The notes beneath the pieces are model-generated. The model ran no database searches. It was not told where the DNA came from and worked only from the letters and a program-made list of their open reading frames with translations. This document shows, piece by piece, positions 8,014-60,448 of a stretch of DNA of 64,000 nt. Every line of letters starts with the position of its first letter. Within the stretch, counting starts at the first letter, position 1. The translations under genes were made by a program, and so were the position numbers. The DNA comes from a virus (lineage: Duplodnaviria; Heunggongvirae; Uroviricota; Caudoviricetes), in IMG/VR virus record IMGVR_UViG_3300028534_000003, positions 33,090 to 97,089 of that record. The stretch is one strand, 5' to 3'.

Positions 8014-8138
8014 TGCTAGTAGGGAATAAATTACAAACCCTACTAGAATAACTACTAATACCCAAAATGCTGCATATGCAACAAACAATGATAATATGAT
8101 AACTAACGTAATAGCAAAACTACGTAGATTATGCAGTG

Positions 8139-8612
8139 TCACGAGTCAAACCTGTCAATAATGGCCTGTAACTTAGCTTCAGGGCCAATAAAGTTATCAG
8201 GCTTAGTTACCTTGCCAGTACTGTCTTTAGTACCAAGCTTAGCTAAATTAGCGTTGTGCACTGCTTGTAATCCATCAACCATAGCAGCTGGAGTAGCTCC
8301 GAATTTATGAAGCTCACCAATTGTTATATATAGTGAGTCAAGTAATGCATCGAACTGATCAACAGTAGCTACAGATGATTTAGGTGTGTCCTTGATTAGT
8401 AATCGAGCAGTTCCACGTGGGTTTGCTGCTCCAACTAATTCAAGTGATTCCTCAATAATCATAGCTGCTGCTGAGTTAGGATCGAATTGACCACGAGGGT
8501 TATCCCACTGTGATTGATTTATACGCACAATGTCCTCAAATAGGTTGAATAATTGCTTCTTGTGTTGCAAGTTACACCTCCCTAAGTAATAGTAAACGCT
8601 GTAACTCACCAA
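8139..8612 (-). CDS. MazG-like nucleoside triphosphate pyrophosphohydrolase (all-alpha NTP-PPase)
   Basis: 157 aa with an EESLELV..A acidic helix and an overall MazG/HisE-like pattern. It sits in the nucleotide-metabolism neighbourhood. Confidence 0.4.
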   Translation of the reverse strand: MVSYSVYYYLGRCNLQHKKQLFNLFEDIVRINQSQWDNPRGQFDPNSAAAMIIEESLELVGAANPRGTARLLIKDTPKSSVATVDQFDALLDSLYITIGELHKFGATPAAMVDGLQAVHNANLAKLGTKDSTGKVTKPDNFIGPEAKLQAIIDRFDS

Positions 8613-8832
8613 GCTTCAATAGATTATCTACTTGAGTAGATTCAATTGTAGTTGGTTGTAACAATGTATTGTTAATTATATCATCAATTAATCCTATATT
8701 ATGCTTATTTCTAGAATAATTAGCAGCTTCATCTTGTGTGTCAGACTCATCATGTTCATCTTCTTCCTCAATAAGCTGTATCATTCTAAGTAAGTCATAT
8801 AATTCCTCTTCAGTTAAAAATTTATTCATCAA
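8572..8832 (-). CDS. Hypothetical acidic protein
   Basis: 86-aa ORF with an acidic stretch (EEEDEHDESD). Confidence 0.35.
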   Translation of the reverse strand: MMNKFLTEEELYDLLRMIQLIEEEDEHDESDTQDEAANYSRNKHNIGLIDDIINNTLLQPTTIESTQVDNLLKLGELQRLLLLREV

Positions 8833-10006
8833 GTTCCTTTTCGCTCTGATTGAGCATTTTAATATTAAAGATAGAACGAGCTATCTCACCAAATTCACTA
8901 TGATAAGTAATTGACTTAGCCTGCCCTATAGTTCCACGGAACCCCATAGATTCTGCCCATTTATCACGAGGTGTTATGTTCTTGTGCACTTCTACAGTAC
9001 AAAGAGTTCCTTCAGTTGTATGGTTAGAGTGCAAGTGTCCGAAGTGGAAATAACGGTATTCAGACTGGCTAAATATTTCTTGGTTATCATATACCAATAC
9101 TTCGCCAGCTTTAGCCGGCTTAAGTTCATGTCCATGCGTAAACCCAAGAATATTTTTACCAAATACATGATATTGCTGGGCTACATGGTCTGTCTTAACT
9201 ATCACACGTGGCTCATCCTTATACCAAGCTGATAAGAAAGCTTTTAGGTATATGGATACATCTTCAGAGTGATTACCAGCTACTGAATAGAAATAAACAA
9301 ACTGGTGTTTAGTTAAAGCCTTATCAATTAACGCTCTAGTTATATCAAATGATGCATTAATTATTTTTGACATACGCCCATCAGCATCAAGTTGATGCCC
9401 AGATGTTGTTGTATTACTGTTATCTGAGAAATGGAGAAAATCTCCTAAGTCAGTTATTACAGCGAATTGAGATGATGGTGATGATTCAACTAGTGAATCC
9501 ATAGCACCAAGCACCCATTCAGTAGCGTGCTTCAAGTCCCAATTGTAGTTGTGGTTTGACTCACTACCATGAATTAATAAGCCAAAGTGTAGATCTGGTA
9601 ATGGGTAAAAAGTAGTTAATTCACTACTATTAAACTGTGGCGGTGCTACTGGTGAATAGTGGCTAACTAATGATTCAGTTATTGACTCGACAGCAGTTCG
9701 AAAAGATTCAAGAGAGTCTTCTTTAGCTACGTCAGATTTCACCCACTGTAGTTTGATGTTACCATCAGCATCATATAGTGTTGATGAGCCCTTAAGGACT
9801 TCACCGGACTGAACTGAATTACCAGAGTCCAATGGTAGTTGGCCTTTGGCTTTCAGTCGAGCTCGCCTAAGAGATATAGATGGCAGACTGATGTCGGCAT
9901 CATATAGCTCCTTTGCAGCTGCTTGGATGTCATTTAAGTGGACATGTTGTTTACATAATTCACTAAATTGATCACGGGTTAGTTTCATTTGGATACTCCA
10001 ATTCAA
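8822..10006 (-). CDS. Calcineurin-like metallophosphoesterase (possible DNA-repair nuclease or phosphatase)
   Basis: Metallophosphatase motifs: DLGDFLHF (GD..D), GNHSED (GNHE), HGHE. Confidence 0.55.
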   Translation of the reverse strand: MNWSIQMKLTRDQFSELCKQHVHLNDIQAAAKELYDADISLPSISLRRARLKAKGQLPLDSGNSVQSGEVLKGSSTLYDADGNIKLQWVKSDVAKEDSLESFRTAVESITESLVSHYSPVAPPQFNSSELTTFYPLPDLHFGLLIHGSESNHNYNWDLKHATEWVLGAMDSLVESSPSSQFAVITDLGDFLHFSDNSNTTTSGHQLDADGRMSKIINASFDITRALIDKALTKHQFVYFYSVAGNHSEDVSIYLKAFLSAWYKDEPRVIVKTDHVAQQYHVFGKNILGFTHGHELKPAKAGEVLVYDNQEIFSQSEYRYFHFGHLHSNHTTEGTLCTVEVHKNITPRDKWAESMGFRGTIGQAKSITYHSEFGEIARSIFNIKMLNQSEKELDE

Positions 10007-24436: not shown

Positions 24437-24871
24437 TTAGTGTGTTTCAGACCAATTAAGGCCTATAGAATAGTCAGCTTCAATTGGAATATTCATATTA
24501 AATTGCTCAGTTACTAGTGAACAACCATTTACAATGTGCCGTCCAAGTGTACCAGCTAAGTCAGGTTTTACAGCACACTGATACTCATCATGTACAAATA
24601 CCATTTGATACCAATCAATACCTTCAGTAAGAGTTGGAGCTGCTAGATTGTGGAAGTTAATTGCCCATTGCTTAGCTATTATTCCGGCTGATCCCTGTAG
24701 TAGTAAGTTAAGGGCTGAGTGAGGCGATTTAGAGATTAATTCACGCCCATCAATAGCTGTAACTGTCCCTTTTGTTTTAGATTGAGTTGAACAATCAGCT
24801 ATTAATTCGTTAATACCATCCATACGAGCTAAGAAGTTATCAGCTACTTGCTTACCATAGATGGTTTCCAT
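24437..24871 (-). CDS. DNA polymerase (family A), 3' exon / C-terminal segment
   Basis: The translation begins (M)ETIYGKQ, which completes motif B (FG..YG). It contains LLQGSAGIIAKQW and motif C VFVHDEYQ. Confidence 0.7.
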   Translation of the reverse strand: METIYGKQVADNFLARMDGINELIADCSTQSKTKGTVTAIDGRELISKSPHSALNLLLQGSAGIIAKQWAINFHNLAAPTLTEGIDWYQMVFVHDEYQCAVKPDLAGTLGRHIVNGCSLVTEQFNMNIPIEADYSIGLNWSETH

Positions 24872-26221
24872 AATTAGACGCTCAGTTGGTTTAACGAATT
24901 CATCCTTACGAAGTGGGAATAAGCCAGCTTCGTTAAGTCTACGATTGATTGATTTAACTGCAATGTCGTAATCCTGTTGTGTAAATTCTAATGTTGTTAT
25001 TGAATTAGATGCCTCATACCCGTATGATGACGATCCAGTTGTACTTGTTGTTGTGTTAGTCCATACTATTATTGAGCCATCACTTAAAACATGGCCTCGT
25101 ATTGTATGGCCTTGCCCATATAAATCATTGTCTTCAGTAATGGTCGCAACACCATTACCCGTTCTCTTATGAACTGCTATATATTTCTATACAGATGAGA
25201 CTATATCATCACCCTCAGCATTATCTGTTAGGGGCAAACCGCTTCCATCACCATTAGCTTGTGATGTACTCCCTTCCGGGATAGTCGTTACACTTTCTCT
25301 ATTTAAAAATTTATCATTATATACACGCTTTACAGCGTATGGTACTCGTTTAATTATGGCTTTAGCCACAGCTTTTGTTATACCATACTTGTCTACTATA
25401 TTATGTACTTTATAATCATTATCATAGTAATCTATTAAAATACTTAGTATAGTATCATCAGGTACTGAATACTTACGTGATTTTCTTGTAATATGCTCAT
25501 CACTATTACTAAATGAATAGTGAGGTTTATTTAGGTAGTCAATAGCTTTTTGTAGTGTCTCTACAGAATCTTTTAATTGACCTAAGGCTGTGTTACATGT
25601 ATGACAAAGTAATCCTCTAACATCCCCTGAAGTATGACAATGGTCAATTACTAGTGGCATTGTTAGAGATTTAGCAGAGTTTGTCATATATCCTGTATAT
25701 CCACATATACTACATTTACCATCTTGTTCAATATACATATCTATATAGTCATCTAGTGACATATTATAATTACGTTGAAGCCAAGCATTAGCTAGGCCTT
25801 TACTAGCGCATTTATCTGAACAATAGTGTTCAGATGGTGCTTTTGGTGTAAATGTATTATTACATATTCTACATGCCTTATCTTTAAAGTACCCTTGTGG
25901 ATACTTAGAAGCAGAGGCTGTTTGATCTTTCTTAATTCTTAAATGCTTACCTGTACTAGGTAAAGGTACTTCATGTCTTTCCATAATATTATTCCTTAAT
26001 AGTTTTATGGAGTGTAACATGTAATTTATTAAATAGAGCTTAGCTCGGGATTGTCTTTAACTTAATAATAAGATGTCCCCCGAATTCAATTTGTTTACTT
26101 ATACACTATTTCTAGTGTAACCGGTCATTTATACATTAATACACTTAGTACACTTACTACTATCATTTGTCTATTCTCATCATAGTAATTGTATTAGTAT
26201 ATTGGAACAATGTAATGTTCA
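24869..26221 (-). mobile_element. Putative group I intron interrupting the DNA polymerase gene, carrying a homing endonuclease ORF
   Basis: The polymerase reading frame stops (TGA) straight after FFFG and resumes with ETIYG 1.35 kb downstream. The upstream exon ends in U and the insert ends in G. The insert has GC-richer structured flanks around an HNH ORF. Confidence 0.5.
25187..26020 (-). CDS. Intron-encoded HNH endonuclease of the Endonuclease VII (T4 gp49-like) type
   Basis: LVIDHCHTSGDVRGLLCHTCNTALG signature plus Zn-finger-like CRICN..C..C at the N-terminus. Confidence 0.65.
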   Translation of the reverse strand: MLHSIKLLRNNIMERHEVPLPSTGKHLRIKKDQTASASKYPQGYFKDKACRICNNTFTPKAPSEHYCSDKCASKGLANAWLQRNYNMSLDDYIDMYIEQDGKCSICGYTGYMTNSAKSLTMPLVIDHCHTSGDVRGLLCHTCNTALGQLKDSVETLQKAIDYLNKPHYSFSNSDEHITRKSRKYSVPDDTILSILIDYYDNDYKVHNIVDKYGITKAVAKAIIKRVPYAVKRVYNDKFLNRESVTTIPEGSTSQANGDGSGLPLTDNAEGDDIVSSV

Positions 26222-27721
26222 ACCGAAAAAGAATTTTTTACTCAAAGCTCTGGCTGCTTTCATTTCTGGTGTGGCTGTATGCTCATCCCAATCACAATCA
26301 TTTTTAGTCCAGAATCCAGCTACTTTTGCATGATACCAATGCATATCTTTAGATAATACAGCTTCAGCATACTTACCATTGTCATATGGGTATAAGTAGT
26401 GAGCTAATACACGTATTTCAATATTTTTAAGATCTGCTCCAAGTAATACAAAATCAGGTGGTGCAGTGAATAATGCCCTATACTTAGGGTCAGCATCAAT
26501 TTGGGCAAGATTAGGCTTTGTATGAGTTGCACGATGTGTTATTGCTCCTATTGTGTCACACTTGCCATGGATTGAATGCGTAATTGGGTTAAATCTAGCT
26601 ATCCAACTATTATCAGTTGTTGATAAGGATGATAGGGATTTCTTTACTTTCATAAGCTTAATAAGATCCTCACCATAGGATCCAAGACGCTTGAGGTCAT
26701 CTCTATCAACCTTAACATTACCTTTAGCTGTATACGTGTTGAACTCAAAATCATATAATGCTTTAAGCCATAGTTTAATTTGATTATCAGTGCCAGTAAA
26801 TTTAGTGAGTTTAATATTCTGGAATTCACCATTTTTCTCAACAAAGATTAGTCTGTGAGGTACTGAGAACCACTGGTACTTAGACTTTGCTGGTAGTTTC
26901 AGTTTGCCAGATTTAAATCGTTTTAATGGTCTAGTATATTGATGAACTGGATCCCACTTGATAAATGATGGATCAGGTATATACTGCCTGCGTCGGATTA
27001 GTTTGTTGGTTTTCTGTGGCTTCCCATCAGGCAAGAATCGAGGTTTGAATGTTTTAGATAATTTGAATTCAAGCTTCTGTCGTTCAAATAATAATGATGT
27101 ATTAAGTTTACGAGCTGCTTCTATGTCGAAATAGAATCCATAACGCTCCTGATCACCTATGATAGCTGCTATTGAATTCTCAAGTTCAATTACATTAGTT
27201 GCTGGAAAGCTAGGCATCGATTCAAGCTTGGTTAGTAATGCATAGGTTACTTCAACATCCTGCTTACAATAGTCAACCATTTCAGTAGTTAACTTAGACC
27301 AGTCATCGTATGAGCCCTTGTAAAGGCCAAGACGACGTCCAAATGCATCCAATGAGTATGAACCATACAATGCAGATGGAAAGTCTTCTATACCCATATC
27401 CATGCCAATAAGGTGCTCTTTAGGAAACATAATCTTAGCAAGTAACATAGTGTCGAGATGACTAGTGTTAAAGTTAAGATTGAAATAGGTTGATAAGTAT
27501 GGGATGTCGAATTTCATACCATTGTGGTGAACTAATTGGTCACAGTTAGATATGGTTCGAATGAATGCTTTTAGGCTACCATCAGAGTTAGGTAACCAAT
27601 GCGAGGTGAAGCACTGAGTTGGTTGTGGTTCACCATCGATCTCAAGCTTACATCCGATACAATGGATAATGCCATTGATATCAAATCCGTTGGTTTCAAT
27701 GTCAATTATTGCTCTCGTCAT
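26219..27721 (-). CDS. DNA polymerase (family A), 5' exon: 3'-5' exonuclease plus N-terminal polymerase domain
   Basis: Exo I (IIDIETNG), polymerase motif A region, and the translation ends ...RALSKKFFFG (the first half of motif B) immediately before the stop. Confidence 0.75.
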   Translation of the reverse strand: MTRAIIDIETNGFDINGIIHCIGCKLEIDGEPQPTQCFTSHWLPNSDGSLKAFIRTISNCDQLVHHNGMKFDIPYLSTYFNLNFNTSHLDTMLLAKIMFPKEHLIGMDMGIEDFPSALYGSYSLDAFGRRLGLYKGSYDDWSKLTTEMVDYCKQDVEVTYALLTKLESMPSFPATNVIELENSIAAIIGDQERYGFYFDIEAARKLNTSLLFERQKLEFKLSKTFKPRFLPDGKPQKTNKLIRRRQYIPDPSFIKWDPVHQYTRPLKRFKSGKLKLPAKSKYQWFSVPHRLIFVEKNGEFQNIKLTKFTGTDNQIKLWLKALYDFEFNTYTAKGNVKVDRDDLKRLGSYGEDLIKLMKVKKSLSSLSTTDNSWIARFNPITHSIHGKCDTIGAITHRATHTKPNLAQIDADPKYRALFTAPPDFVLLGADLKNIEIRVLAHYLYPYDNGKYAEAVLSKDMHWYHAKVAGFWTKNDCDWDEHTATPEMKAARALSKKFFFG

Positions 27722-28256: not shown

Positions 28257-28474
28257 GGTGACTCCGATGATAATTCATCAAGCAATAGTTGATTATGTTT
28301 GATGGCTTTATGGATGGCATGAATACGAACATCATCACGAGTTTGGTATGGTACTTCAATTAGAGTTGCTATTAACTGCTTAGCACTAGTTATCTTAAAT
28401 TCAAGTGCTGATTGATAAGATAAATTGGTTAATTGAGCTGGTTGAATTGAGTAAAGGTATGTAGTTGTTTTCAT
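28253..28474 (-). CDS. Hypothetical protein
   Basis: 73-aa ORF. Confidence 0.3.
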   Translation of the reverse strand: MKTTTYLYSIQPAQLTNLSYQSALEFKITSAKQLIATLIEVPYQTRDDVRIHAIHKAIKHNQLLLDELSSESP

Positions 28475-30060
28475 TGTGTTAACGCTCTATGCCAAGTAAT
28501 TAATTGATCCCTATCAGCTTTAAATAGTGTTTCTGATGTTGCTCCAAAGCCAGATAACTCAGTAATTAGATCATTAGTAGAATAAGATGAGTAATCAGAG
28601 TTATCAGAATTATTAGTAGAATTATCAGGTTCAAGACCAGGATGATCCAATTCAGATTGAAGGTAGCTGATGAACTCATCATACTCATAAATTAGTTCAA
28701 CTTTATTCATTTGTTTAAGTGCTTTAATGGTTGATTGTACTAGTGATTCATCTTCAAACTCCTCTTCAGTAAGTTTAATTAATATCTCACGAAGTTTATC
28801 CTCTGACATATGCATCAGCTCAATATTAGATAGATTAGTATAGTCAATATCTTCATCGGCTTTAGTTAGACTTAATAACTCAGCCTGCAGTGCTTTATAT
28901 GTTGCAATTAATTGTGGCTTAGGAAGAACTTTAGTGTAGTGTGGCTTACGACCAAAATAGATTAAAGCTAGTTTGGCAATTAATTTCTCAATATCAGTTG
29001 CAGATAGTTTATCTAATTGCTTGTCATTTTTAAATCGTATTTTGGCTACATCAGCTGCGTTAATAGTATTATTAGTACGATCGGTAGTTGGAAACATATT
29101 AGCTATAGCTAACGGTTTAGCTTGTTTAGTTAAATATGGTTGGCTACTACCATAATATGTGTATGTTGGTTTTGATTTACTAGATACATTATCAGGCTGA
29201 ACTAAATCACAATTAGGTACAAAATTAGTCTCATCCCATAATTTATGAATTGATTTAAGTAAGTTGTTGAATTCAAGATTATCAGTTGTATGGTAGTGAG
29301 TTGTCTTAGGAGTGATGCCAAATAATAGTTCAGACTCAGATACAGCTGTTACAGGTGATTTAATAAGTGCTGCACATCTGCCTTTATAGTAAGTTATGTC
29401 AGCATCTTCTTTGCCATTAGCAATACGATATTCATAATGAGCTATCATATTACGAGTACCATTGTGGGCCATGATTCCAGAGAATGACGGTTTCATATCA
29501 CCAGAGCTAAGTGGAAATACAATACCAAGATCAGAGTTGGCATTGGTGTTAAGATCAGTGCTAGAGAATGACTGGTTAGTGGGTGAGCCAGGATGCTTAT
29601 GTAATGTACAGTAATCAACTGATAATATCTCAGATGAATGGTTAGGAAATAATTGCTTGATGCTGTCGAATAATGGTAATGGTAATAATGAGTTAGCCAT
29701 AGCGTTATGTAGTGGAACTAACTCAGTTGAGATTTCCTCAACATCAGTTAATTCAAAGTCAATATGCGCTGAAGTTACTTGCTGTCTATAGTTAAAAAAT
29801 ACAGTAGGTACACAAATATCAATAATTGATTTATCAGCTGCTGTTAGTCGAAGTACTAATGAATGGTAATGCACTTGGTATTCGTTATTGTTAGCTAGTG
29901 GACCAGATCCCTTTCTAATTGATTGAAGAGTTTGATCAGCTAGTAGAATGATCCCAATATTGGCTGGATTAGTTTTCTTGTGGATCTTCTGCTTCGGTGT
30001 CGGAGTTGTCACCATCATTGTTGTCTGTTTCTGTTGTTGTTGTATTGGTTTTTTCATCAC
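28471..30060 (-). CDS. Hypothetical protein (529 aa) in the E1-like cluster
   Basis: Long ORF containing HYH..D and HKHPGS (weak JAB-like H.H motifs with non-canonical spacing). Confidence 0.45.
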   Translation of the reverse strand: MMKKPIQQQQKQTTMMVTTPTPKQKIHKKTNPANIGIILLADQTLQSIRKGSGPLANNNEYQVHYHSLVLRLTAADKSIIDICVPTVFFNYRQQVTSAHIDFELTDVEEISTELVPLHNAMANSLLPLPLFDSIKQLFPNHSSEILSVDYCTLHKHPGSPTNQSFSSTDLNTNANSDLGIVFPLSSGDMKPSFSGIMAHNGTRNMIAHYEYRIANGKEDADITYYKGRCAALIKSPVTAVSESELLFGITPKTTHYHTTDNLEFNNLLKSIHKLWDETNFVPNCDLVQPDNVSSKSKPTYTYYGSSQPYLTKQAKPLAIANMFPTTDRTNNTINAADVAKIRFKNDKQLDKLSATDIEKLIAKLALIYFGRKPHYTKVLPKPQLIATYKALQAELLSLTKADEDIDYTNLSNIELMHMSEDKLREILIKLTEEEFEDESLVQSTIKALKQMNKVELIYEYDEFISYLQSELDHPGLEPDNSTNNSDNSDYSSYSTNDLITELSGFGATSETLFKADRDQLITWHRALTQ

Positions 30061-31120
30061 TATCCTTTAAGATGTTGGTAAATTTATATATTTCGAATGA
30101 CTTAGCTATTGAAGCATCCACATAAGCAAGTGCCCCAGGACGAATTAAATTATCAATTGTATCACTGAATGGACTACCCATGTTCACATGGTTAAGTGTT
30201 TGTAGGCCAGCTAGTGTTCGGTTGGACGTTGATCCGGTACATACTGAATTAAAGTGGGCATAAATAGTATCAAGTGGCTGATCAACTATCAATGATGTTT
30301 GATATGCTATATTACAAGAAGTCATTGGGGTTAAATGGGTGCCAGTAACAGCATGCCCAGCAGTAGTAAGGGATACACCATAATATGGTGCTGCTATACC
30401 ATCAGTTAAGAATTGGTTAGCGATGATATTAAGTACAGTGACGGTAGTACCAGTGGTACCCTCAACACGATAATTAATAGTAGCCATATTACCATCAATG
30501 TAATGCCCCTCAATAAATGTCTTAGGTGGTTCGGTTAATTCAGCGGAACCAAGGGTACGGATTAGATTGTTAATTAATCCATCTATTTTATCTTTGTCAA
30601 CTAAATCAGCTTCTTGTAGATCATATTCTATAAGGCTACGATTGCCATTGTAAGTATAAATAATCACACTGTATATTGCTGCTTCCACTTCAGGTGTAAT
30701 AGACATAGCTATTAGTATATGTAGTGGATTAAATATTTCACCAGTAGCATTGTTTTTAATAATTGCCCCATACAACTCAGATCCAAGTGTTTTATAAATT
30801 GTATAAATTGCTTGAATAGCTTCAGCAAAAGTAAATGAATTACCAATAGGAATAATTGTATCAGATATAATGCTAAGAAAGTCTTTGCCATTGAATCTAG
30901 GTTCATCTGGAGTAGTTGCCGGTACACGGTAATTAGTTAATATATCCTGGACAGATTGCATAGATGGTGATACTGAATATACTAATGCTTGATTGTCAAT
31001 TTTATTAGTGGCTACTGAACAGTTGTCAAGTAATGATTGAGATTCAAACTCAACACAAGACTTAAATTCGTTATCAAATATTCTAGTGAATAAAGGTTTA
31101 CTGTGTTTATCTGGTACCAT
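29969..31120 (-). CDS. Hypothetical protein (383 aa) with an acidic C-terminal tail
   Basis: Long ORF that overlaps its neighbours. The tail reads ETDNNDGDNSDTEAEDPQEN. Confidence 0.45.
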   Translation of the reverse strand: MVPDKHSKPLFTRIFDNEFKSCVEFESQSLLDNCSVATNKIDNQALVYSVSPSMQSVQDILTNYRVPATTPDEPRFNGKDFLSIISDTIIPIGNSFTFAEAIQAIYTIYKTLGSELYGAIIKNNATGEIFNPLHILIAMSITPEVEAAIYSVIIYTYNGNRSLIEYDLQEADLVDKDKIDGLINNLIRTLGSAELTEPPKTFIEGHYIDGNMATINYRVEGTTGTTVTVLNIIANQFLTDGIAAPYYGVSLTTAGHAVTGTHLTPMTSCNIAYQTSLIVDQPLDTIYAHFNSVCTGSTSNRTLAGLQTLNHVNMGSPFSDTIDNLIRPGALAYVDASIAKSFEIYKFTNILKDSDEKTNTTTTETDNNDGDNSDTEAEDPQEN

Positions 31121-33180
31121 TATAGTGCCTCCATATTATTAATATCTGTATCGGTATGAATTACATTAGATGATTGTGATATTTGAAAATTATACTTACG
31201 AGCTGTTGGTAGTACAGGATTACCATCGAATTCATAACTAAGAAGATTAAGGTCACGAGCTTGTGGATCAAAATCAGGGTTGGCTAATGTTTCAAGTAAA
31301 CCAATAGCTAGTCTAAGTTGATTCATAAAGAATGTATTCAATTCGATTACACCATACGATTCAACCTGTAAGGTTAAGTTGTGTGATGGATTAAGGTAAA
31401 GACTACAAGATGAGTCACCATGAGTGGCTGAGATGAATCCACCAATGTTAGATAACTCTTCACGAGTAGCTAAGCCAGGTGCACCATACACGATATGTTT
31501 GTCAGTTAATGGTACAGTTGTATTATCATCAATAGACTTAAATACGTTTTGAATGTACCCATTAGTACGTAGTCGCTGCTTATTGATAGATGGTACATTA
31601 TTTGATAGCCTACTTAATTGGTTACCAAGTAAATCAAGCTTATTAATGTCATTTCTAATTGTGCTAGTTAATACTGATGTAGGATCAATTGGGAATCTAA
31701 GTAAATTAGAAAATTCAATATTGTCATACTCAAAGATATTGACTGACTTAAATAAGTTAGCACTATCAGTATATTGCATGATAGAATTAAGCCAATGGAT
31801 AGTATTAGTATTAGTTCCACCGTAGCCAATGAATGTCATAGTATATTGCTGCTTACGAACTGCAGTAACTAGCTCAACCAAGTGTTTACGAGTATATCCA
31901 AGAACAGTGCAAAGATCAGCTATAGGTATCTGCTTCACACCAAATGCACGAGCAATGAATGGTGAGATAGCAGTAGCTGTACTAGGTAGCCTATAATTGT
32001 TAAACTCACTCATATTAAATCTATTGGCTATTAGTGACAATGGGAAATAAGTATCGACTACAATATTAGCTAATCCACTAGCTGGCCTAGCTTTCATAGC
32101 ATACCTGGTATTAATTTGTGATGTTAGATATTGATTAATTGACATTCGCTTAAGTTGAGAGTGTCCAAATACGGTTGCTCCCGGCTGAATACCAGTGTTG
32201 CGATTAAACATATGTATATCATTAGCGTAGCTTTTTAGTACTCCAGTGTCTTCAATGGCTAGTGTATATGCAGTAGAATGATACCTACTTGTATAGTATA
32301 GAATTGATAATGATGACTCAAACCCACTAGAATACCTAGCAGGTTTTATATTAAACAGGTAATGTACATCCTTTGTATTAAATATAAATATACTATCTCC
32401 AATTATAGCAGGGCCTATTATGGAATTACTTAAACAGGTTAGTATAACACTACTGATTGGGTCTGACCCATCGGCGGCTACTGTAATAGTAGGTATTCTA
32501 TTATTAACTTTTGTAGATATAAGCCCCTTATCACCAATATAATGTTTATTCCCAAATAATGTAAATTCAGCTTTGTATGATCGGGTATGGTCGGTTGAGC
32601 TATACTTAGTTACACGCAATCCAGTCGGGCTAACACTATCAGATTGAGAGAATAATTTACTAATTAATTCAGCTTGTTGCTCTTTTGAATATATAGATGG
32701 ATTTTCTGGTGTAAACTCAAATAAATCGGGACTTACTGATTTACGTAAATACTCAAGGGGGACGTCAGGATAAGTAGGTGGTCCATTTAATACACCGTTG
32801 TTATTTATAGTAAATTGTGTTATACTGCCGTTATTACCCATATCATATCTATCTATGTTGATATGGGCACCACTTGGTGATTGCATATACTCATTAAAAA
32901 CTTTAGTAGCTAAAAATTTATTAGTTCTTAGTACAAGTAATGCAGATGAATCTAGCAATACTGGTGTTGCTGACAATTCAAATAATACTATAGGAGTATC
33001 AAATGGATCTTCTGTTTCTACAGTACTATGTACTGATAAGAACATGGGATCAGATTCATAAGTAGGGTAGATAGCTGCGAATCCACTAGAGCTGGTTAGG
33101 TATACAGTAGATATATATTCAGGAGAACGATGTTCAATTGGAATATGTTCGAAGATTCTGTCTTGAAGTGATGTTGGCAT
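31120..33180 (-). CDS. Protein with a C-terminal E1/ThiF-like adenylation (Rossmann) domain
   Basis: G-rich loop FIGYGGTNTN followed about 30 aa later by IFEYDNIEFSNLLRF. Compare the ThiF/MoeB/E1 signature D.D.VE.SNLNRQ. Confidence 0.5.
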   Translation of the reverse strand: MPTSLQDRIFEHIPIEHRSPEYISTVYLTSSSGFAAIYPTYESDPMFLSVHSTVETEDPFDTPIVLFELSATPVLLDSSALLVLRTNKFLATKVFNEYMQSPSGAHINIDRYDMGNNGSITQFTINNNGVLNGPPTYPDVPLEYLRKSVSPDLFEFTPENPSIYSKEQQAELISKLFSQSDSVSPTGLRVTKYSSTDHTRSYKAEFTLFGNKHYIGDKGLISTKVNNRIPTITVAADGSDPISSVILTCLSNSIIGPAIIGDSIFIFNTKDVHYLFNIKPARYSSGFESSLSILYYTSRYHSTAYTLAIEDTGVLKSYANDIHMFNRNTGIQPGATVFGHSQLKRMSINQYLTSQINTRYAMKARPASGLANIVVDTYFPLSLIANRFNMSEFNNYRLPSTATAISPFIARAFGVKQIPIADLCTVLGYTRKHLVELVTAVRKQQYTMTFIGYGGTNTNTIHWLNSIMQYTDSANLFKSVNIFEYDNIEFSNLLRFPIDPTSVLTSTIRNDINKLDLLGNQLSRLSNNVPSINKQRLRTNGYIQNVFKSIDDNTTVPLTDKHIVYGAPGLATREELSNIGGFISATHGDSSCSLYLNPSHNLTLQVESYGVIELNTFFMNQLRLAIGLLETLANPDFDPQARDLNLLSYEFDGNPVLPTARKYNFQISQSSNVIHTDTDINNMEAL

Positions 33181-33232
33181 AATTAGTCCTTATAATATTT
33201 TAGTGAGCCCTCTAAGGAGGACTCTAAAAAGA

Positions 33233-33358
33233 TTAAGCTGCTACACCAGATCCAGATTTACTTTTCATAGTTGATCCAGATGCAGTTGTAACGTTAACAG
33301 GTGCTGACGTATCTGCTCCAGCTAATGCTGCTGCAATTAATTCTGCGTTAGTTGCCAT
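33233..33358 (-). CDS. Unannotated small ORF (41 aa, A/S/G/T-rich peptide MATNAELIAAALAGADTSAPVNVTTASGSTMKSKSGSGVAA)
   Basis: Strong SD (GGAGG 7 nt upstream of the ATG). It is followed by an 8-bp hairpin (including one G.U pair) before the next gene's RBS. Confidence 0.4.
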   Translation of the reverse strand: MATNAELIAAALAGADTSAPVNVTTASGSTMKSKSGSGVAA

Positions 33359-33360
33359 AA

Positions 33361-33606
33361 TTAATCCTCCTTACCTATTGATACTGGTAAATTAACTGTT
33401 ACTTCACCCTCAAGTGAGTATAGCTCAATTGTAGCATCAGTAGTCGCTAATCTCTTAGCGATCTTCTTAGCTTCTTTAACCGATACAAACTCACTACCGA
33501 TTTGACCATTGATAACTAAGATTTTATTCTTCTTAGCTTTCTTAGTAGTTTTTACTGGTGCGAATACTGCTTCAAGTTTTGCCAATATTTCTTCTGTTTT
33601 AGACAT
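33361..33606 (-). CDS. Hypothetical small protein (Lys-rich N-terminus, possibly a beta-grasp-like core)
   Basis: 81 aa. ILVINGQ...TIELYSLEGEVTV resembles ThiS/MoaD-like strand patterns, but there is no C-terminal GG. Confidence 0.35.
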   Translation of the reverse strand: MSKTEEILAKLEAVFAPVKTTKKAKKNKILVINGQIGSEFVSVKEAKKIAKRLATTDATIELYSLEGEVTVNLPVSIGKED

Positions 33607-33895: not shown

Positions 33896-34639
33896 TTATG
33901 ATTCAGCCACACAATCTTCAAATAAGAATTTATGATCGTCTGGCAATGCATCAAATATAGCTTGTGCTAGGTCTCTGATTTCCCATAATGCTGCTTTAGA
34001 TGATCGTAATGATAGAAAGTTCTGTAATGATCTGGCATTGATAGTCCAAACTAGAGATGTACGATAGGCCTCAGGCATACAGTACTTAGCTAGGTCATTA
34101 GAGCAATTGTTATTAAGTATGCTTCTCAAATTTTCAAGAGCTTCAACACTAGCTGAGTCAACATCATCATTGCCAGTAAGTACAATATATTTACAAGCAC
34201 GATCTATAGCATATTGTTCTGTAAATGGTGTTATGAATGTATCTTCATCAGTAAGTTCGGCTAATGTGTAGCGACTAGACTTTACTGAGAATGAGCTAAT
34301 TCTATGTCGAACTAATTCTTGCAAGCAAGCTCTACTAATTCCATCAATATCGAAATTGTATGATACATGTTCAATAGTTGAGGCGTGTTTGTTCTTGTTG
34401 GCTATACGCTCTATTCGTGCTACATTGCAACCTGGTATTTTAATAGGGCTACCAAACTGAGCATTACAATTGTCACATAAATAATAGTCGTCAGGTTGAG
34501 ACTTAAACTCAAAAGATTCACTTCCACAAGATGGACAAACACCCTCATCATTAGTATCTGGTGTAGGTTTATCCCAACATTTCCCTATAGCTTTATCTGC
34601 TATCCAAAGTGGTGTATGATTTAAAAGTGTTACTGTCAT
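33896..34639 (-). CDS. thyX: FAD-dependent thymidylate synthase ThyX with an inserted Zn-ribbon
   Basis: N-terminus LLNHTP..IADKAIGKCW (ThyX start) and RHRISSFSVKSSRY (ThyX RHR...S..S.RY motif). A CPSCGS...CDNC insertion lies between them. Confidence 0.6.
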   Translation of the reverse strand: MTVTLLNHTPLWIADKAIGKCWDKPTPDTNDEGVCPSCGSESFEFKSQPDDYYLCDNCNAQFGSPIKIPGCNVARIERIANKNKHASTIEHVSYNFDIDGISRACLQELVRHRISSFSVKSSRYTLAELTDEDTFITPFTEQYAIDRACKYIVLTGNDDVDSASVEALENLRSILNNNCSNDLAKYCMPEAYRTSLVWTINARSLQNFLSLRSSKAALWEIRDLAQAIFDALPDDHKFLFEDCVAES

Positions 34640-37921: not shown

Positions 37922-39316
37922 TTAATTTCCTTTGTTTCTTATTTCAGTTAAATTAGTTTCTATTAATAGCTTACCATTATGAAATACAGGCTTAAGAGCT
38001 TCCTCATATCCTTCAGGCAATTCGTTATACTGTTGAGTATATAACTCATACTTTCCATCTTTAACGATTGTAGTTACTCTACCTCGTTTAGATTTTTTAC
38101 CAGGATCTGTAATTGGGTCTTTGAAGATGTCAATATTCATAGTATGTAACTCTTCAGGTGTGCAATCAATATCAGATTGTACAGTAATTTGGCTACACTT
38201 AATAGCAAACTTATTGGTGTCTCTAGTGATATTCTGTGCAAGATCACCGCCACTACCGAAGATAAAGTTCTCTGCCGCGTAGCCAAGAGCTGTTACATGT
38301 TCAAGAATAGCTTCAATCTGTTCTGGAGTAATACCATCACCCCACAGTAGTCCATATTGTTTGAATGTAATTGGACGAGTATCTCTGTCTGTTTCACAGT
38401 TAGCGTACATTATCTCCAATATGCGTTCAAGCACTTCAATTGGATCACCACTATCAGGCCTGATTACAAGTTTCTGGTGTGGCCTGCTATCAAGTAATTG
38501 CCTAATACGTCCAGATGGATTAGTTACCATATCAGTGAATGCATAGACATCGTATGAGTCAGCAACAAATGACATGATTGGTGCATCAGGATTCTTTTGT
38601 AGTTGATCCCATACGAATTGCTCCTCACCATCCCTGCCGTACGATGTAGTAGTAGAGTGCTCAGATGCCCATACAGAAAATGAGTCAGCTGAAGTTGAGT
38701 TATAGTAGAGAGCTGGTAATAGTAATGAATTAAAGTTATCAGTTCCCATGAATTGAGTTGAATGTGCAAATCCAGCTAGAGAGGCTGATTCAACTGAGGT
38801 ACAGCCACGGTCAGAGAAGTTGTGTAGTGCGAAGTTAGCCCAATCAGGTGGCCCATAGTTGAGTAAGGTTTGCTTGATGTAGTACGACTTAGTAGCTATA
38901 GTAATTGGATACCACAACTTAAGTAATAAAGTTTCAAGATAACCTGGCAGCCAAGGTACTTCAGGGTCAGTTGATTCTATTACAAGTAATGGTAGTCCAG
39001 TAGGGATTAAAGATCCTTCAGGTACTGCTTTGATCGATACTGGTAGATAGCCAAGTTCGACTATGTAGTCCCATCCTGCTTTGTTAAATGGTTCACCGTG
39101 TTCAGCAGCTAGTTTAGCAGCCATAATTACATCAGTTTTAGTTGGTACTTTAAGTAAATACTTTTTAATGTAATATTGCAGTCCAACGAACACTGTAGCT
39201 GGGTACTGTCCACCACGAGATTCAAGATAAGAATACATAGATACCATATTATCAGGGTATTGAGAGTACTGGCCAAGTTTATATGAGTCAGTTAGTGTTA
39301 CTATCGAGTTAGTCAT
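37922..39316 (-). CDS. nadV: Nicotinamide phosphoribosyltransferase (NAMPT/NadV)
   Basis: N-terminal TDSYKLGQYSQYP, 464 aa, typical NAMPT family length and motifs. Confidence 0.75.
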   Translation of the reverse strand: MTNSIVTLTDSYKLGQYSQYPDNMVSMYSYLESRGGQYPATVFVGLQYYIKKYLLKVPTKTDVIMAAKLAAEHGEPFNKAGWDYIVELGYLPVSIKAVPEGSLIPTGLPLLVIESTDPEVPWLPGYLETLLLKLWYPITIATKSYYIKQTLLNYGPPDWANFALHNFSDRGCTSVESASLAGFAHSTQFMGTDNFNSLLLPALYYNSTSADSFSVWASEHSTTTSYGRDGEEQFVWDQLQKNPDAPIMSFVADSYDVYAFTDMVTNPSGRIRQLLDSRPHQKLVIRPDSGDPIEVLERILEIMYANCETDRDTRPITFKQYGLLWGDGITPEQIEAILEHVTALGYAAENFIFGSGGDLAQNITRDTNKFAIKCSQITVQSDIDCTPEELHTMNIDIFKDPITDPGKKSKRGRVTTIVKDGKYELYTQQYNELPEGYEEALKPVFHNGKLLIETNLTEIRNKGN

Positions 39317-49521: not shown

Positions 49522-49720
49522 TGTAGATCCTTTATGGTGAGTTATTCACTTACTGCTGACAAGTGTGTGATAACAGTAGTTTATTAAATCCGATATTGTT
49601 AGTAACTGATATCAGGACTTGTCAATAGTAAATGAATAATCCAAGTATGTCTAAAGTGTAGTTATGTCAAATTAAAAGTTTGGTAAGTAACACAATAGAG
49701 GACTTGGATGGTATGTGTTT

Positions 49721-49876
49721 CCACATAGTACTACATAAGTGTGCGTAAGTAGTAAAATAACGTGCTCTACCACTGAGCTACTACTCCACTAATGTCGGAG
49801 TAGGCTGGATTTGAACCAGCGACCACGTGCTCCAAATGCAAGTAACTAATTACAGGACTTATGCAGTACTATGTGG
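49721..49876 (-). ncRNA. Circularly permuted tRNA-like element flanked by a 20-bp inverted repeat
   Basis: The minus strand reads ...GTGGTC-GCTGG-TTCAAAT-CCAGC-CTACTCC-G-(ACATTAGT)-GGAGTAG-TA-GCTC-AGTGGTA-GAGC-A.... The flanks are CCACATAGTACTGCATAAGT and ACTTATGTAGTACTATGTGG. Confidence 0.4.
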
Positions 49877-49958
49877 AATATGCGGAGCTAAGCGCTCCGA
49901 CTGATTAGGTGAATAAGTTACCGTCCCATCTAAGGTAATTCAAGGCATACTTGAGTAA

Positions 49959-59977: not shown

Positions 59978-60448
59978 TTGAAAGATAACATGGATAATGA
60001 AATACCATTAAACATATCACTCGGTAAGGATGAATCAATCCAAGTTAAACGAGTATATGATAACAAGCCACCATTCTCTATGGTCGGCACTAAGCAAACC
60101 AAGAAAGGATCAACAATGTTAAATAGTGAACATCACTTAGATATACTAGAAGTAATGGAAAATATATCACCAAATGCTATATACGTACTAAGACTACTAC
60201 GAGATAGTAGAGAGATTAGTGATTATGAAACACATAGCATAGCTCCAATGATCACTAGTAGACGTAAAGAACTGTCTAAAAGTGACCAACGTAGATGGGA
60301 TAAAGGATTAGCTGTACTAATAGCTAATAAGCTTATAGCTAGCTATATAGGTAAATATATGATTAATCCATTCCTGATTATACCAAACAACTTCGAGGAG
60401 CATGAAAAGCTATGGAACAAACTATCTGATGATATAGTTACTAGCTAG
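59978..60448 (+). CDS. Putative winged-helix transcriptional regulator
   Basis: 156 aa with AIYVLRLLRDSREISDYE, matching a MarR/wHTH recognition-helix pattern. It is divergent from the early gene block and has the operator repeats upstream. Confidence 0.35.
   Translation: MKDNMDNEIPLNISLGKDESIQVKRVYDNKPPFSMVGTKQTKKGSTMLNSEHHLDILEVMENISPNAIYVLRLLRDSREISDYETHSIAPMITSRRKELSKSDQRRWDKGLAVLIANKLIASYIGKYMINPFLIIPNNFEEHEKLWNKLSDDIVTS

Follow-up and report, generated by a model that had tools for sequence, protein, structure and literature searches.

The window, a 64-kb stretch of DNA assigned to the Caudoviricetes, carries on its minus strand a module that reads, in the direction of transcription, as an 81-aa ORF (33361..33606, the position given in the original prediction), a 41-aa peptide ORF (33233..33358; MATNAELIAAALAGADTSAPVNVTTASGSTMKSKSGSGVAA), a 686-aa E1-like ORF (31120..33180), a 383-aa ORF for what we call the Cys-protein (29969..31120), and a 529-aa JAB ORF (28471..30060). 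All features described below lie on this strand. The ORF coordinates and strand, both sequence motifs, the GGAGG site, and the hairpin on which the original prediction was built were each found again where it had placed them. For the 529-aa ORF, the likelier start is the ATG at 30057, which has an AAGGA ribosome-binding site ahead of it and gives a likelier gene extent of 28471..30057. The stop codon of the E1-like gene overlaps the start of the 383-aa gene (TAATG), and the 529-aa gene, when counted from ATG 30057, shares 89 nt with the 383-aa gene, so the three enzyme genes appear to be translationally coupled. Their products probably act as one complex. The module indeed sits in a replication neighbourhood, with a RuvC-like resolvase (phrog_1770) and DNA polymerase A downstream and ThyX upstream; genes around it encode ThyX, ribonucleotide reductase, ligase, and polymerase. 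As to the description of the phage as N4-like, distant matches to the N4-type virion RNA polymerase and to N4-like RNAP families speak for it, but the collection holds no related phage genome.

The order peptide, hairpin, E1-like protein, Cys-protein, and JAB protein is kept in about 20 related loci (17 distinct lineages), which are all the related loci long enough to display the full gene order, and this synteny persists at E1-like identities as low as 32%. All contigs that bear the module are phage, namely viral contigs of 51-123 kb, and no deposited phage genome with module genes was found. Searches of Pfam, NCBIfam, PHROGs, PADLOC, and PDB sequences recognised none of the components, and neither an exporter nor an immunity gene was seen conserved beside the module in the related loci. 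The 81-aa gene, whose end lies 2 nt from the peptide ATG, appears from sequence comparison to be a variable accessory gene. Its product, here termed type A, reads as a putative N-terminal helix, a Lys-rich linker, and a probable small alpha/beta domain that contains a 'VNG' motif, and it matches nothing in Pfam, PHROGs, or NCBIfam. Type A homologs (81-103 aa, with no conserved C-terminal Gly) occupy the same position in 10 lineages, and in five lineages an unrelated type B protein of 164-181 aa stands in their place. No support emerged for the 81-aa protein as a beta-grasp modifier, a character that the original prediction had considered possible.

The small ORF, proposed from the window alone, proved to be a real gene, as its position and sequence are conserved in 17/17 distinct loci and it is under purifying selection. 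It is present once in the 64-kb window, with a GGAGG ribosome-binding site 8 nt 5' of its ATG, and homologous genes of 36-50 aa lie directly upstream of the E1-like gene at every one of the 17 loci. The window peptide has an amphipathic N-terminus, an A-G-x-D-T-S motif, and an S/T/G/K-rich C-terminal part ending in KSKSGSG plus a three-residue tail, VAA. The motif, as A-G-x-D-T-[ST], is present in every peptide aligned from these loci, and in all 17 peptides the C-terminus consists of [S/K]-G and then a tail of 1-10 residues that varies between loci. Close pairs give pN/pS values of 0.07-0.28, and two loci, L004 and L012, encode an identical peptide despite about 10 synonymous differences. An invariant Gly followed by a non-conserved tail is, by analogy, the pattern of modifier precursors, and corresponds to the hallmark of ubiquitin-like proteins (Ubls), a conserved C-terminal Gly with a removable extension. 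A beta-grasp modifier is nevertheless rejected for the peptide, which at 36-50 aa and with its low-complexity, A/S/T/G-rich composition is too short for such a domain; because it is the sole component with a conserved C-terminal Gly, the module does not appear to contain the beta-grasp modifier expected of a ubiquitin-like system. Nor did the analysis turn up a target, an E3, or any beta-grasp protein.

Between the peptide and E1-like genes, a 52-nt spacer holds an RNA stem-loop (33205..33224) of the form GAGUCCUC-CUUA-GAGGGCUC, with 8 bp, one G.U pair, and the tetraloop CUUA. It is the only GAG...CTC 8-bp hairpin within the 64 kb. Taken by itself it is marginal (z = -1.98; 11/200 shuffles fold equally well). 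The same spacer, however, contains a perfect stem-loop of 6-12 bp in 17/17 distinct loci, although the stem sequences are unrelated to one another, and the loop is often of the UNCG type; folded spacers beat dinucleotide shuffles in 16/16 cases (z -2.0 to -5.0), and compensatory changes are seen in 5/6 inner pairs of the stem. The predicted hairpin is thus borne out as a conserved structure, present in all loci, better folded than its shuffles, and co-varying; its conservation is structural and not at the level of sequence. In the related loci it lies clear of the ORF, 4-81 nt past the peptide stop. As no U-tract follows it, a terminator function is only inferred; the stem-loop is probably a partial terminator, an attenuator, or a 3'-end stabiliser that sets the ratio of peptide to enzyme expression.

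The N-terminal extension of the E1-like protein (residues 1-340; 32161..33180) is lineage-specific and non-conserved: no homologs span it, it is predicted with pLDDT < 50, and the 334-382-aa E1-like proteins of loci L017, L020, L024, L025, and L027 do without it. At L024, a separate 138-aa ORF lies between the peptide and E1-like genes. Residues 341-686 (31123..32160) form an adenylation-type domain with an E1-type Rossmann-like fold, and its best structural matches include MoeB, Uba4, and ThiF-type enzymes. Ahead of the Rossmann core lies a conserved helical insert of about 90 residues that includes an HTH-like stretch, and a 'TRY...RP' helix maps to 32083..32109. The Gly loop IGYGGTNTNT (31801..31830; IGYGGTNT is residues 451-458) is followed by the E1/ThiF signature EYDNIEFSNLLRF at residues 484-496, within EYDNIEFSNLLRFP (31690..31731), and by K514 (within 31627..31644). 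Over 23 divergent sequences, G452, G454, G455, N492, R495, and K514 are invariant and residue 484 is always E or D, so that the ATP site retains the GxGxxG loop, the acidic end of beta-2, the Asn and Arg of D.D.V..SNL.RQ, and the downstream Lys. The hhalign register against MoeB/ThiF/TcdA pairs E484 with D62, D486 with D64, N492 with N70, and R495 with R73, although only a local part of these alignments to ThiF-family proteins reaches significance (E 0.009, probability 4.5%); from its spacing, K514 would be equivalent to K86. Further invariant polar residues are T586, H587, E607, and Y609; the invariant ATH lies within 31417..31431 and VESYG at 31351..31365, and comparison with MoeB/ThiF suggests that the segments with these residues lie near the active site.

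The E1/ThiF-like identity of the protein stands on its fold and ATP-site residues, but Pfam ThiF (PF00899) does not recognise it. The protein has no Pfam match at E<=1, and the family consensus has none even at E<=10; there is also none between the profile and PDB sequences, and none in PADLOC or NCBIfam. Adenylation activity is not assured: by manual register, the position of MoeB D130 ('DCTDN', the Mg-binding catalytic Asp after beta-4) seems to read Y-G-A-P. The strand LNP is separated from the VESYG segment by only about 8 residues, and none of the 23 sequences shares an invariant Cys. A canonical thioester-forming E1 of the UBA1/Cap2/BilD type was rejected, as no crossover-loop Cys is invariant in the 23 sequences; in this respect the domain resembles MoeB, ThiF, and BubCD.

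The Cys-protein belongs to an orphan family of 199 representative clusters (phmmer, E<=1e-3) and its gene always lies between the E1-like and JAB genes. It matches nothing in Pfam, NCBIfam, PHROGs, or PDB sequences. Across 123 sequences, G118, N131, P245, Y247, N270, C294, and S316 are invariant, which gives the family one invariant Cys together with conserved His and Asn. C294, the only invariant Cys, lies in SVCTGS (30230..30247); NPLH maps to 30719..30730, N270 to within 30308..30316, and L.H.N..S to 30173..30196. The HPN...Cys signature of E2 enzymes was considered and dismissed, since N270 ('S.NI') stands 15-24 residues before C294 and NPLH 160 residues upstream. The protein is a candidate acyl carrier or ligase, which would give it an E2-like role.

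The 529-aa protein, originally described as having 'weak H.H motifs', is a JAB/JAMM peptidase. Its JAB domain (~29176..29988) has the JAB/MPN fold, with the catalytic Glu in NEYQVHY (29866..29886) and the zinc site in HKHPGSPTNQSFSSTD (29554..29601); the C-terminal extension is long, helical, and poorly conserved. The E...HxH...S..D pattern is intact, with E60, H154, H156, S166, and D169 (529-aa ORF numbering) invariant in 20 sequences, and the HxH-to-S spacing of the family is nine residues in contrast to the classical seven. Against Pfam JAB, Prok-JAB, and RadC, only one of the 20 members touches Prok-JAB (E=0.2), and searches with the family consensus and PADLOC gave no JAB match. The JAB identity tips the module towards ubiquitin-like conjugation over a YcaO-type RiPP. 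A specific anti-CBASS or anti-Bil role, which the original prediction had also raised, found no support.

An E1-like and a JAB fold with invariant ATP- and zinc-site residues are thus found in strict synteny with a Gly-plus-tail peptide under selection and a conserved hairpin. We tentatively favour the reading that the module is a phage-encoded, ubiquitin-like yet peptide-based cassette for acyl activation and conjugation, which may well be its nature. The peptide of about 40 residues would be produced in excess over the enzymes, with the stem-loop curbing read-through or stabilising a short transcript. The JAB metallopeptidase would cut off the variable tail of 1-10 residues and expose the conserved C-terminal Gly, whose carboxylate would be adenylated by the ATP-bound E1-like domain. 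The acyl group may then be handed to C294 of the 383-aa protein, in an E2-like role, and from there to a target amine, most likely a lysine of a host or phage protein; the JAB protein may also undo the conjugation. Bub type I offers a precedent, since BubCD uses its JAB domain to cut right after a conserved Gly and so yield the E1 substrate, and that E1 likewise has no catalytic Cys (PMC11601596). With more reserve, we suggest that the phage module could be a minimal 'ubiquitin-like' system that combines a JAB-trimmed, probably disordered peptide of about 40 residues and a Cys-less E1 with a new Cys-dependent carrier or ligase, which would attach the peptide covalently to host or phage macromolecules during infection. 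If so, it might act to redirect host proteins or to shut them off, those of ubiquitin-like defences (e.g., CBASS type II, Bil, or Bub) among them; alternatively, it might mark components of the replication machinery. It would then be the first conjugation system of a bacterial virus, use the smallest E1-activated modifier known, and represent a third solution to the E2 step beside UBC-fold Cys and Ser enzymes.

Other readings share parts of this evidence. In a RiPP-like pathway, the E1-like enzyme would bind an N-terminal leader of the peptide and activate a carboxylate for an intramolecular or nucleotide linkage (MccB acting on MccA and PaaA on PaaP being the precedents), the JAB protein and/or the Cys-protein would be maturation peptidases, and a free product (a toxin, signal, or inhibitor) would result. 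The layout of precursor gene, hairpin, and enzyme gene fits, and the adjacency of peptide and E1-like genes that the original prediction had likened to RiPP operons holds in 17/17 loci; both peptide halves are conserved, as leader plus core would be, and the ~90-residue helical insert with its HTH-like stretch could be a peptide-binding element. We nonetheless consider this pathway somewhat unlikely: no YcaO, radical-SAM, lanthipeptide, or similar domain was found in the module, no conserved exporter or immunity gene adjoins it, only 3/17 peptides have the C-terminal Asn of an MccB-type substrate, and a variable tail after an invariant Gly is more in keeping with a C-terminus that is to be exposed than with a core peptide. 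To our knowledge, JAB peptidases are a hallmark of Ubl and sulfur-carrier systems and not of known RiPP classes. Sulfur transfer is the subject of a further reading, in which the adenylated Gly of the JAB-trimmed peptide would become a thiocarboxylate and C294 would carry a persulfide or use the sulfur, e.g., for nucleotide or nucleic acid thiolation. ThiS, MoaD, CysO, and QbsE, with ThiF, MoeB, MoeZ, and the JAB proteins Mec+ and QbsD, are precedents, and the QbsCDE/CysO logic is just this set of an E1-like protein, a JAB protein, and a carrier whose Gly precedes a tail that can be removed. The structural matches to MoeB, Uba4, and ThiF-type enzymes, the lack of a catalytic Cys in the E1-like domain, as in MoeB and ThiF, and the neighbouring genes for ThyX, ribonucleotide reductase, ligase, and polymerase are in line with it, and in a by-eye reading of the alignment the loop after C294 (C-T-G-S-x-S-N-R/K, then an apparently helical stretch) faintly recalls rhodanese-type Cys loops. 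However, neither rhodanese, cysteine desulfurase, nor PP-loop was detected in ~100 members of the 383-aa family. The candidate carrier is a peptide of about 40 aa ending in SG, whereas all sulfur carriers known to us are beta-grasp proteins ending in GG, and we know of no thiolated base in phage DNA that calls for such a system. Sulfur transfer is accordingly judged unlikely.

The E1-like domain might also be non-catalytic, a scaffold binding nucleotide or peptide, while the JAB and Cys-proteins do the chemistry, e.g., as proteases of host or phage proteins, with the peptide as their regulator or as an inhibitor. Such domains exist among the E1-like partners of azoline-forming cyclodehydratases and the inactive adenylation domains of canonical E1s; here the equivalent of the catalytic Asp is not recognised, and the sequence has next to no similarity to those of active ThiF-family enzymes. 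That the Gly loop, the acidic residue of beta-2, the Asn and Arg of SNLxR, and K514 are invariant over 23 divergent sequences indicates a maintained ATP site, and T586, H587, E607, and Y609, placed near the active site by the MoeB/ThiF comparison, are also invariant, which makes a mere scaffold rather improbable. Finally, since the operon is directly preceded by a short ORF and then a stem-loop, the ORF could be a regulatory leader with a functionless product, which together with the hairpin would only attenuate the enzyme genes at the level of transcription or translation. We regard this as highly improbable: the amino-acid motifs are conserved where the DNA has fully diverged, pN/pS is well below 1, the ORF owns a strong ribosome-binding site, and there is no alternative-pairing arrangement, as the hairpin is found 4-81 nt past the stop and thus outside the ORF.

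The conjugation cassette that we favour differs from known systems in several respects. In type II CBASS, which is bacterial and defensive, Cap2 (an E2-E1 fusion) and Cap3 (a JAB protein) act on the C-terminus of the CD-NTase. A whole enzyme serves there as the 'modifier', and the fused E1 and E2 both have a catalytic Cys, whereas the phage module has a free ~40-aa peptide, an E1-like domain with no invariant Cys, and a third protein that is not a recognisable E2; it is borne by lytic-type phage genomes, and no sequence-level similarity to CBASS was found. MccB requires a C-terminal Asn and makes a peptidyl-nucleotide; the phage peptides end instead in Gly plus a tail, and neither MccA-MccB (microcin C) nor PaaP-PaaA (pantocin A) includes a JAB peptidase or a Cys-protein. 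In ThiS-ThiF, MoaD-MoeB, CysO-MoeZ-Mec+, QbsE-QbsC-QbsD, SAMP-UbaA-JAMM, and TtuB-TtuC, a rhodanese or desulfurase partner can usually be identified, and none was detected in the phage module. Bub type I (6E.1/DUF6527; BubAB, BubCD, BubE) differs in gene order and partners: its JAB and E1 are fused and not separate, its modifier consists of 1-3 beta-grasp domains joined in one protein to an E2 that has the UBC fold and a catalytic Ser, and it has a DUF6527 serine protease, none of which was detected in the phage module. Bil (BilABCD, ISG15-like) pairs a beta-grasp Ubl with a UBC-fold E2, and its large E1 has a Cys domain in addition to two adenylation domains in tandem. Bil defends against phages by tagging one of their tail proteins (PMC11601596), whereas the present module is on the phage side. 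The likeness to Pup-PafA-Dop, in which a small, disordered, peptide-like modifier has its C-terminus prepared and is then ligated to lysines, is a functional analogy only, as its enzymology (a glutamine-synthetase-like ligase and a deamidase, with neither E1 nor JAB) is unrelated.

The conserved N-terminal half of the phage peptide, the amphipathic helix plus A-G-x-D-T-S, would be superfluous for simple activation of the tail, and by analogy it looks more like the recognition 'leader' of RiPPs.

The module is encoded on the minus strand of the window, and all five ORFs named in the original prediction were recovered there by ORF calling: an 81-aa ORF (33361..33606), a 41-aa peptide ORF behind a GGAGG ribosome-binding site (33233..33358), a 686-aa E1-like ORF (31120..33180), a 383-aa ORF whose product we call the Cys-protein (29969..31120), and a 529-aa JAB ORF (28471..30060). 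The GGAGG and the hairpin that had been placed between the peptide and E1-like genes are both present, the latter as GAGUCCUC-CUUA-GAGGGCUC (33205..33224) in the 52-nt spacer 3' of the 41-aa ORF. The replication neighbourhood is likewise as described: the module is flanked by ThyX and, at its opposite end, by a RuvC-like resolvase and DNA polymerase A. Gene packing is tight, as only 2 nt separate the stop codon of the 81-aa ORF from the ATG of the peptide gene, and the E1-like stop and the Cys-protein start share an overlapping TAATG. For the JAB gene, the most likely start codon is the ATG at 30057, which is preceded by AAGGA and gives an 89-nt overlap with the Cys-protein gene.

Related loci were collected from metagenome contigs and from nine viral contigs of 51-123 kb in IMG/VR. 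Wherever such a locus was long enough for the order to be read, it ran E1-like, Cys-protein, JAB, and gene order is conserved down to 32% identity between the E1-like proteins. Among 185,579 prokaryotic species, each represented by one genome, the module was found on two short contigs of a single MAG only, and the one family member in BFVD is an uncharacterised protein from a metagenomic ‘Podoviridae sp.’. Thus, the module is phage-specific and so far confined to uncultured phages. In one lineage (L021/L022) the JAB gene is present as two ORFs about 355 nt apart (8023..8457 and 8813..9739), which may reflect an insertion, an intron or an assembly problem.

The 686-aa protein contains both motifs on which its E1-like assignment was originally based, IGYGGTNT at residues 451-458 and EYDNIEFSNLLRF at residues 484-496. 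Searching 5.8 billion proteins with a word index, we retrieved just 13 relatives (38-47% identity), all matching the C-terminal half alone; the family alignment similarly shows a conserved domain of ~345 residues and an N-terminal part that is not conserved. The E1-like proteins of other lineages are only 334-382 aa long, which marks the first ~340 residues in the window as an extension specific to its lineage. In one locus (L024), a 138-aa ORF (5560..5976) stands on its own between the peptide gene and an E1-like gene that is itself short (335 aa). Given that other family members carry unrelated N-terminal extensions, this arrangement hints at an accessory domain that can be swapped, perhaps to recognise the target or the peptide.

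In profile-profile comparisons (hhalign) with authentic E. coli MoeB, ThiF and TcdA, the E1-like family aligned over the stretch from the Gly-loop to SNLxR alone and with low probability, and within this motif region the register was the one first proposed. Across 23 E1-like sequences, the ATP-site residues G452, G454, G455, an acidic residue at 484, N492, R495 and K514 are invariant, as are the polar residues T586, H587, E607 and Y609. None of the cysteines is invariant in these sequences and the crossover segment is very short; therefore, the domain is a minimal one of the MoeB/ThiF/BubCD type rather than a thioester-forming E1. The position of the Mg-binding Asp130 of MoeB is occupied by Y-G-A-P in a manual register. 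Because the ATP site is otherwise intact and T586, H587, E607 and Y609 are invariant, we infer that the domain is catalytically competent. A second 686-aa ORF in the window (60422..62482, minus strand) was considered as a paralog and rejected, being an unrelated N4-like single-subunit RNA polymerase (phrog_414, E 6e-65; phrog_2166, E 8e-29).

The word-index search found no relative of the Cys-protein but itself. However, phmmer against 1.84 billion representatives identified 199 Cys-protein clusters (defined at 50% identity) at E<=1e-3, 133 of them at E<=1e-10, so that the module is far more widespread than the first search indicated. Seven residues, G118, N131, P245, Y247, N270, C294 and S316, are invariant in 123 sequences, and P132, H134, Q236, T295, G296, H311 and N313 are almost so. 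To judge from this alignment, they form a catalytic-looking constellation around one Cys. The E2 signature HPN...Cys is absent from the family, which also has no library or PDB sequence matches.

None of the 686-, 383-, 529-, 81- and 41-aa products matched Pfam, PHROGs or NCBIfam, and no member of the E1-like or JAB families matched PADLOC. Member-by-member scans of the JAB and Cys-protein families against Pfam, and of the Cys-protein family against NCBIfam, gave no match, nor did the family consensus sequences against Pfam. Profile searches of PDB sequences with the three large families returned nothing meaningful, the p85 coiled-coil matches of the C-terminal tail of the JAB family being compositional. 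Neither a DNA search with the region nor tblastn with the three enzymes, one at a time, found a match among 50,697 deposited phage records. The original prediction was aware of no such module in N4-like phages, and a search of the literature available here on phage-encoded E1/JAB modules, N4-like phages with ThiF/JAMM or AclA likewise found no relevant description.

Loss of the peptide gene from homologs had been named as evidence that would speak against the module. A gene for a peptide of 36-50 aa is present immediately 5' of the E1-like gene in 17/17 distinct loci, with the 138-aa ORF of L024 intervening in that locus. The peptides align as one architecture, starting with a short amphipathic N-terminal stretch and continuing with the motif A-G-x-D-T-[ST], a Ser/Thr-rich middle and S-L-x-T-x-S-x-[S/K]-G. 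The Gly is followed by a tail of 1-10 residues that is not conserved (VAA, VIA, LFA, AFA, K, N, I, AK, NR, S, Y, Q, TSGESC and DNSDRLDC). Between close pairs pN/pS is 0.07-0.28, and the loci L004 and L012 encode the same peptide despite ~10 synonymous differences. The small protein encoded upstream of the peptide varies, being of the window's type (81-103 aa) in ten lineages and an unrelated protein of 164-181 aa in five. Since neither type has a conserved C-terminal Gly, and the other protein takes its place in five lineages, the 81-aa protein was rejected as the leading candidate for an activated modifier.

Every distinct locus also has a perfect stem-loop of 6-12 bp in the spacer 3' of the peptide gene. 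The stem sequences of more distant loci have nothing in common, and UUCG and UACG are frequent loop sequences, an indication that the element functions as RNA. All of the folded spacers (16/16) were more stable than dinucleotide shuffles, with z from -2.0 to -5.0 and -1.98 for the window. Compensatory double changes occur in five of the six inner pairs among nine tetraloop loci, the stems having been preselected as best hairpins. A generic genome-wide element was rejected, as the window has no second GAG...CTC hairpin of this stringency. No U-tract follows the hairpin, which may be a partial terminator, an attenuator or a 3'-end stabiliser.

Ubiquitin-like and sulfur-carrier systems are characterised by the very combination seen here, an E1-like adenylating domain together with a JAB peptidase and a small gene product whose conserved Gly precedes a disposable tail. 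The JAB domain of Bub type I cuts directly after a conserved Gly and so yields the substrate for a Cys-less E1 (PMC11601596). In type II CBASS, the substrate is not a beta-grasp protein: its single C-terminal Gly/Ala is activated by the E1 domain of Cap2, and its C-terminus is also where the JAB protein Cap3 cuts (PMC10097602). Both systems are recent, close-fitting bacterial precedents for the phage module, and we therefore propose a scheme of trimming, adenylation, transfer and attachment. The JAB protein would trim the tail of the peptide and expose the Gly, which the E1-like domain would adenylate; the acyl group might then pass to C294 of the Cys-protein, a candidate carrier, before the peptide is attached to an amine of a target. 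The hairpin would ensure an excess of the peptide over the enzymes. The folds, conserved residues, synteny, peptide pattern and hairpin are observed directly in the present analysis, and from there on we infer the entire chemistry and the target.

Of the main rivals to this conjugation scheme, RiPP-like maturation would release a free product, and the conserved, ‘leader-like’ N-terminal half of the peptide, as well as the presence of MccB/PaaA among the structural matches, speaks for it. The peptide may also be a thiocarboxylate sulfur carrier, for which the MoeB-like, Cys-less nature of the E1-like domain and the nucleotide-metabolism gene neighbourhood would argue. Alternatively, the E1-like domain may be a non-catalytic scaffold; the apparent lack of the Mg-binding Asp would favour this reading, and the invariance of the remaining ATP site argues against it. 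It is unlikely that the peptide is purely a regulatory leader.

To our knowledge, the E1/JAB conjugation machinery of prokaryotes has so far been linked with sulfur transfer and, in recent work, with defence against phages (CBASS type II, Bil and Bub). The same enzymatic logic here turns up in the phages themselves, within the early/replication region of large, uncultured members of the N4-like group. While the enzymology is the known one of E1-like and JAB acyl-activation systems, the phage origin is new, as is the whole absence of all three families from annotation libraries. Also new is the simplicity of the system, in which a bare ~40-aa peptide replaces the beta-grasp modifier protein and an orphan, unrecognisable Cys-protein is the candidate for the position of the E2. 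If the module conjugates, the study of E1-driven tagging would gain a tractable minimal model, a new principle of counter-defence or host takeover would be added, and a compact, genetically encoded tool for ligating peptides would be at hand. In addition, three sizeable protein families that are so far ‘hypothetical’ in all libraries now have a hypothesis for their structure or function; the 199 clusters are those of the Cys-protein family alone.

The window's phage encodes N4-type virion-RNAP-like giant ORFs and an N4-like RNAP, a T7-like PolA (about 30% identity), ribonucleotide reductase, ligase, helicases, primase, NAMPT and RNA ligase. Near the module, several of these phages have a conserved gene for a nicotinamide/nicotinate phosphoribosyltransferase of NAD salvage (window 37922..39316; L001 1163..2821; L007 359..1813). 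Directly 3' of the JAB gene, 5/13 lineages encode a very small reverse transcriptase (243-278 aa, Pfam RVT_1), which two further lineages carry a few kb downstream (L001 7596..8411; L007 12177..13013; L009 4007..4825; L018 9439..10173; L019 9456..10205; L004 18656..19387); the phages carrying it are lytic-type. Because it adjoins the module in those five lineages only and is absent from the window, it was rejected as a core part.

The two giant overlapping ORFs (74..8013, plus strand; 1679 and 968 aa) lie on the strand opposite to all other genes and have only distant matches to the N4-type virion RNA polymerase family (E 1e-12 and 4e-8). Skews over this region are very strong (GC +0.28 to +0.41, AT +0.21 to +0.31), and the break between the ORFs at 5107..5113 may be a frameshift or separate two genes. 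The family-A DNA polymerase is also in pieces (24437..27721, minus strand), with the exonuclease and the first part of the polymerase domain at 26219..27721, the last part at 24437..24871, and an endonuclease VII-type ORF (25187..26020) between them. The split, which recurs in L004 and L012, is probably a homing-endonuclease or intein/intron-type insertion. The ThyX homolog (33896..34639, minus strand) has a zinc-ribbon-like CxxC...CxxC insertion near its N-terminus (residues ~31-62; weak Zn-ribbon matches), and in L008 ThyX is present as two ORFs.

Neither ARAGORN nor Rfam called a tRNA in the window, and Rfam gave no known RNA family there. Nevertheless, the intergenic region 49522..49958 contains a tRNA-like element on the minus strand (49764..49824) with its halves in permuted order. 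The 3' half consists of a variable region, the T-arm GCTGGTTCAAATCCAGC and the acceptor strand CTACTCC, followed by G; 8 nt downstream is the matching 5' half, with the acceptor GGAGTAG and the D-arm TAGCTCAGTGGTAGAGC, and both halves flank a common GAGCACGT. When the halves were joined in silico tRNA calls were obtained, and a tRNA gene that is split, permuted or rearranged is a possible reading. Three copies of AAGTCCT-N7-GTTACT (49860, 49705 and 49620, minus strand) all fall within the same intergenic 49.5-49.96 kb and nowhere else in the window, and may be a cluster of phage promoters or binding sites.
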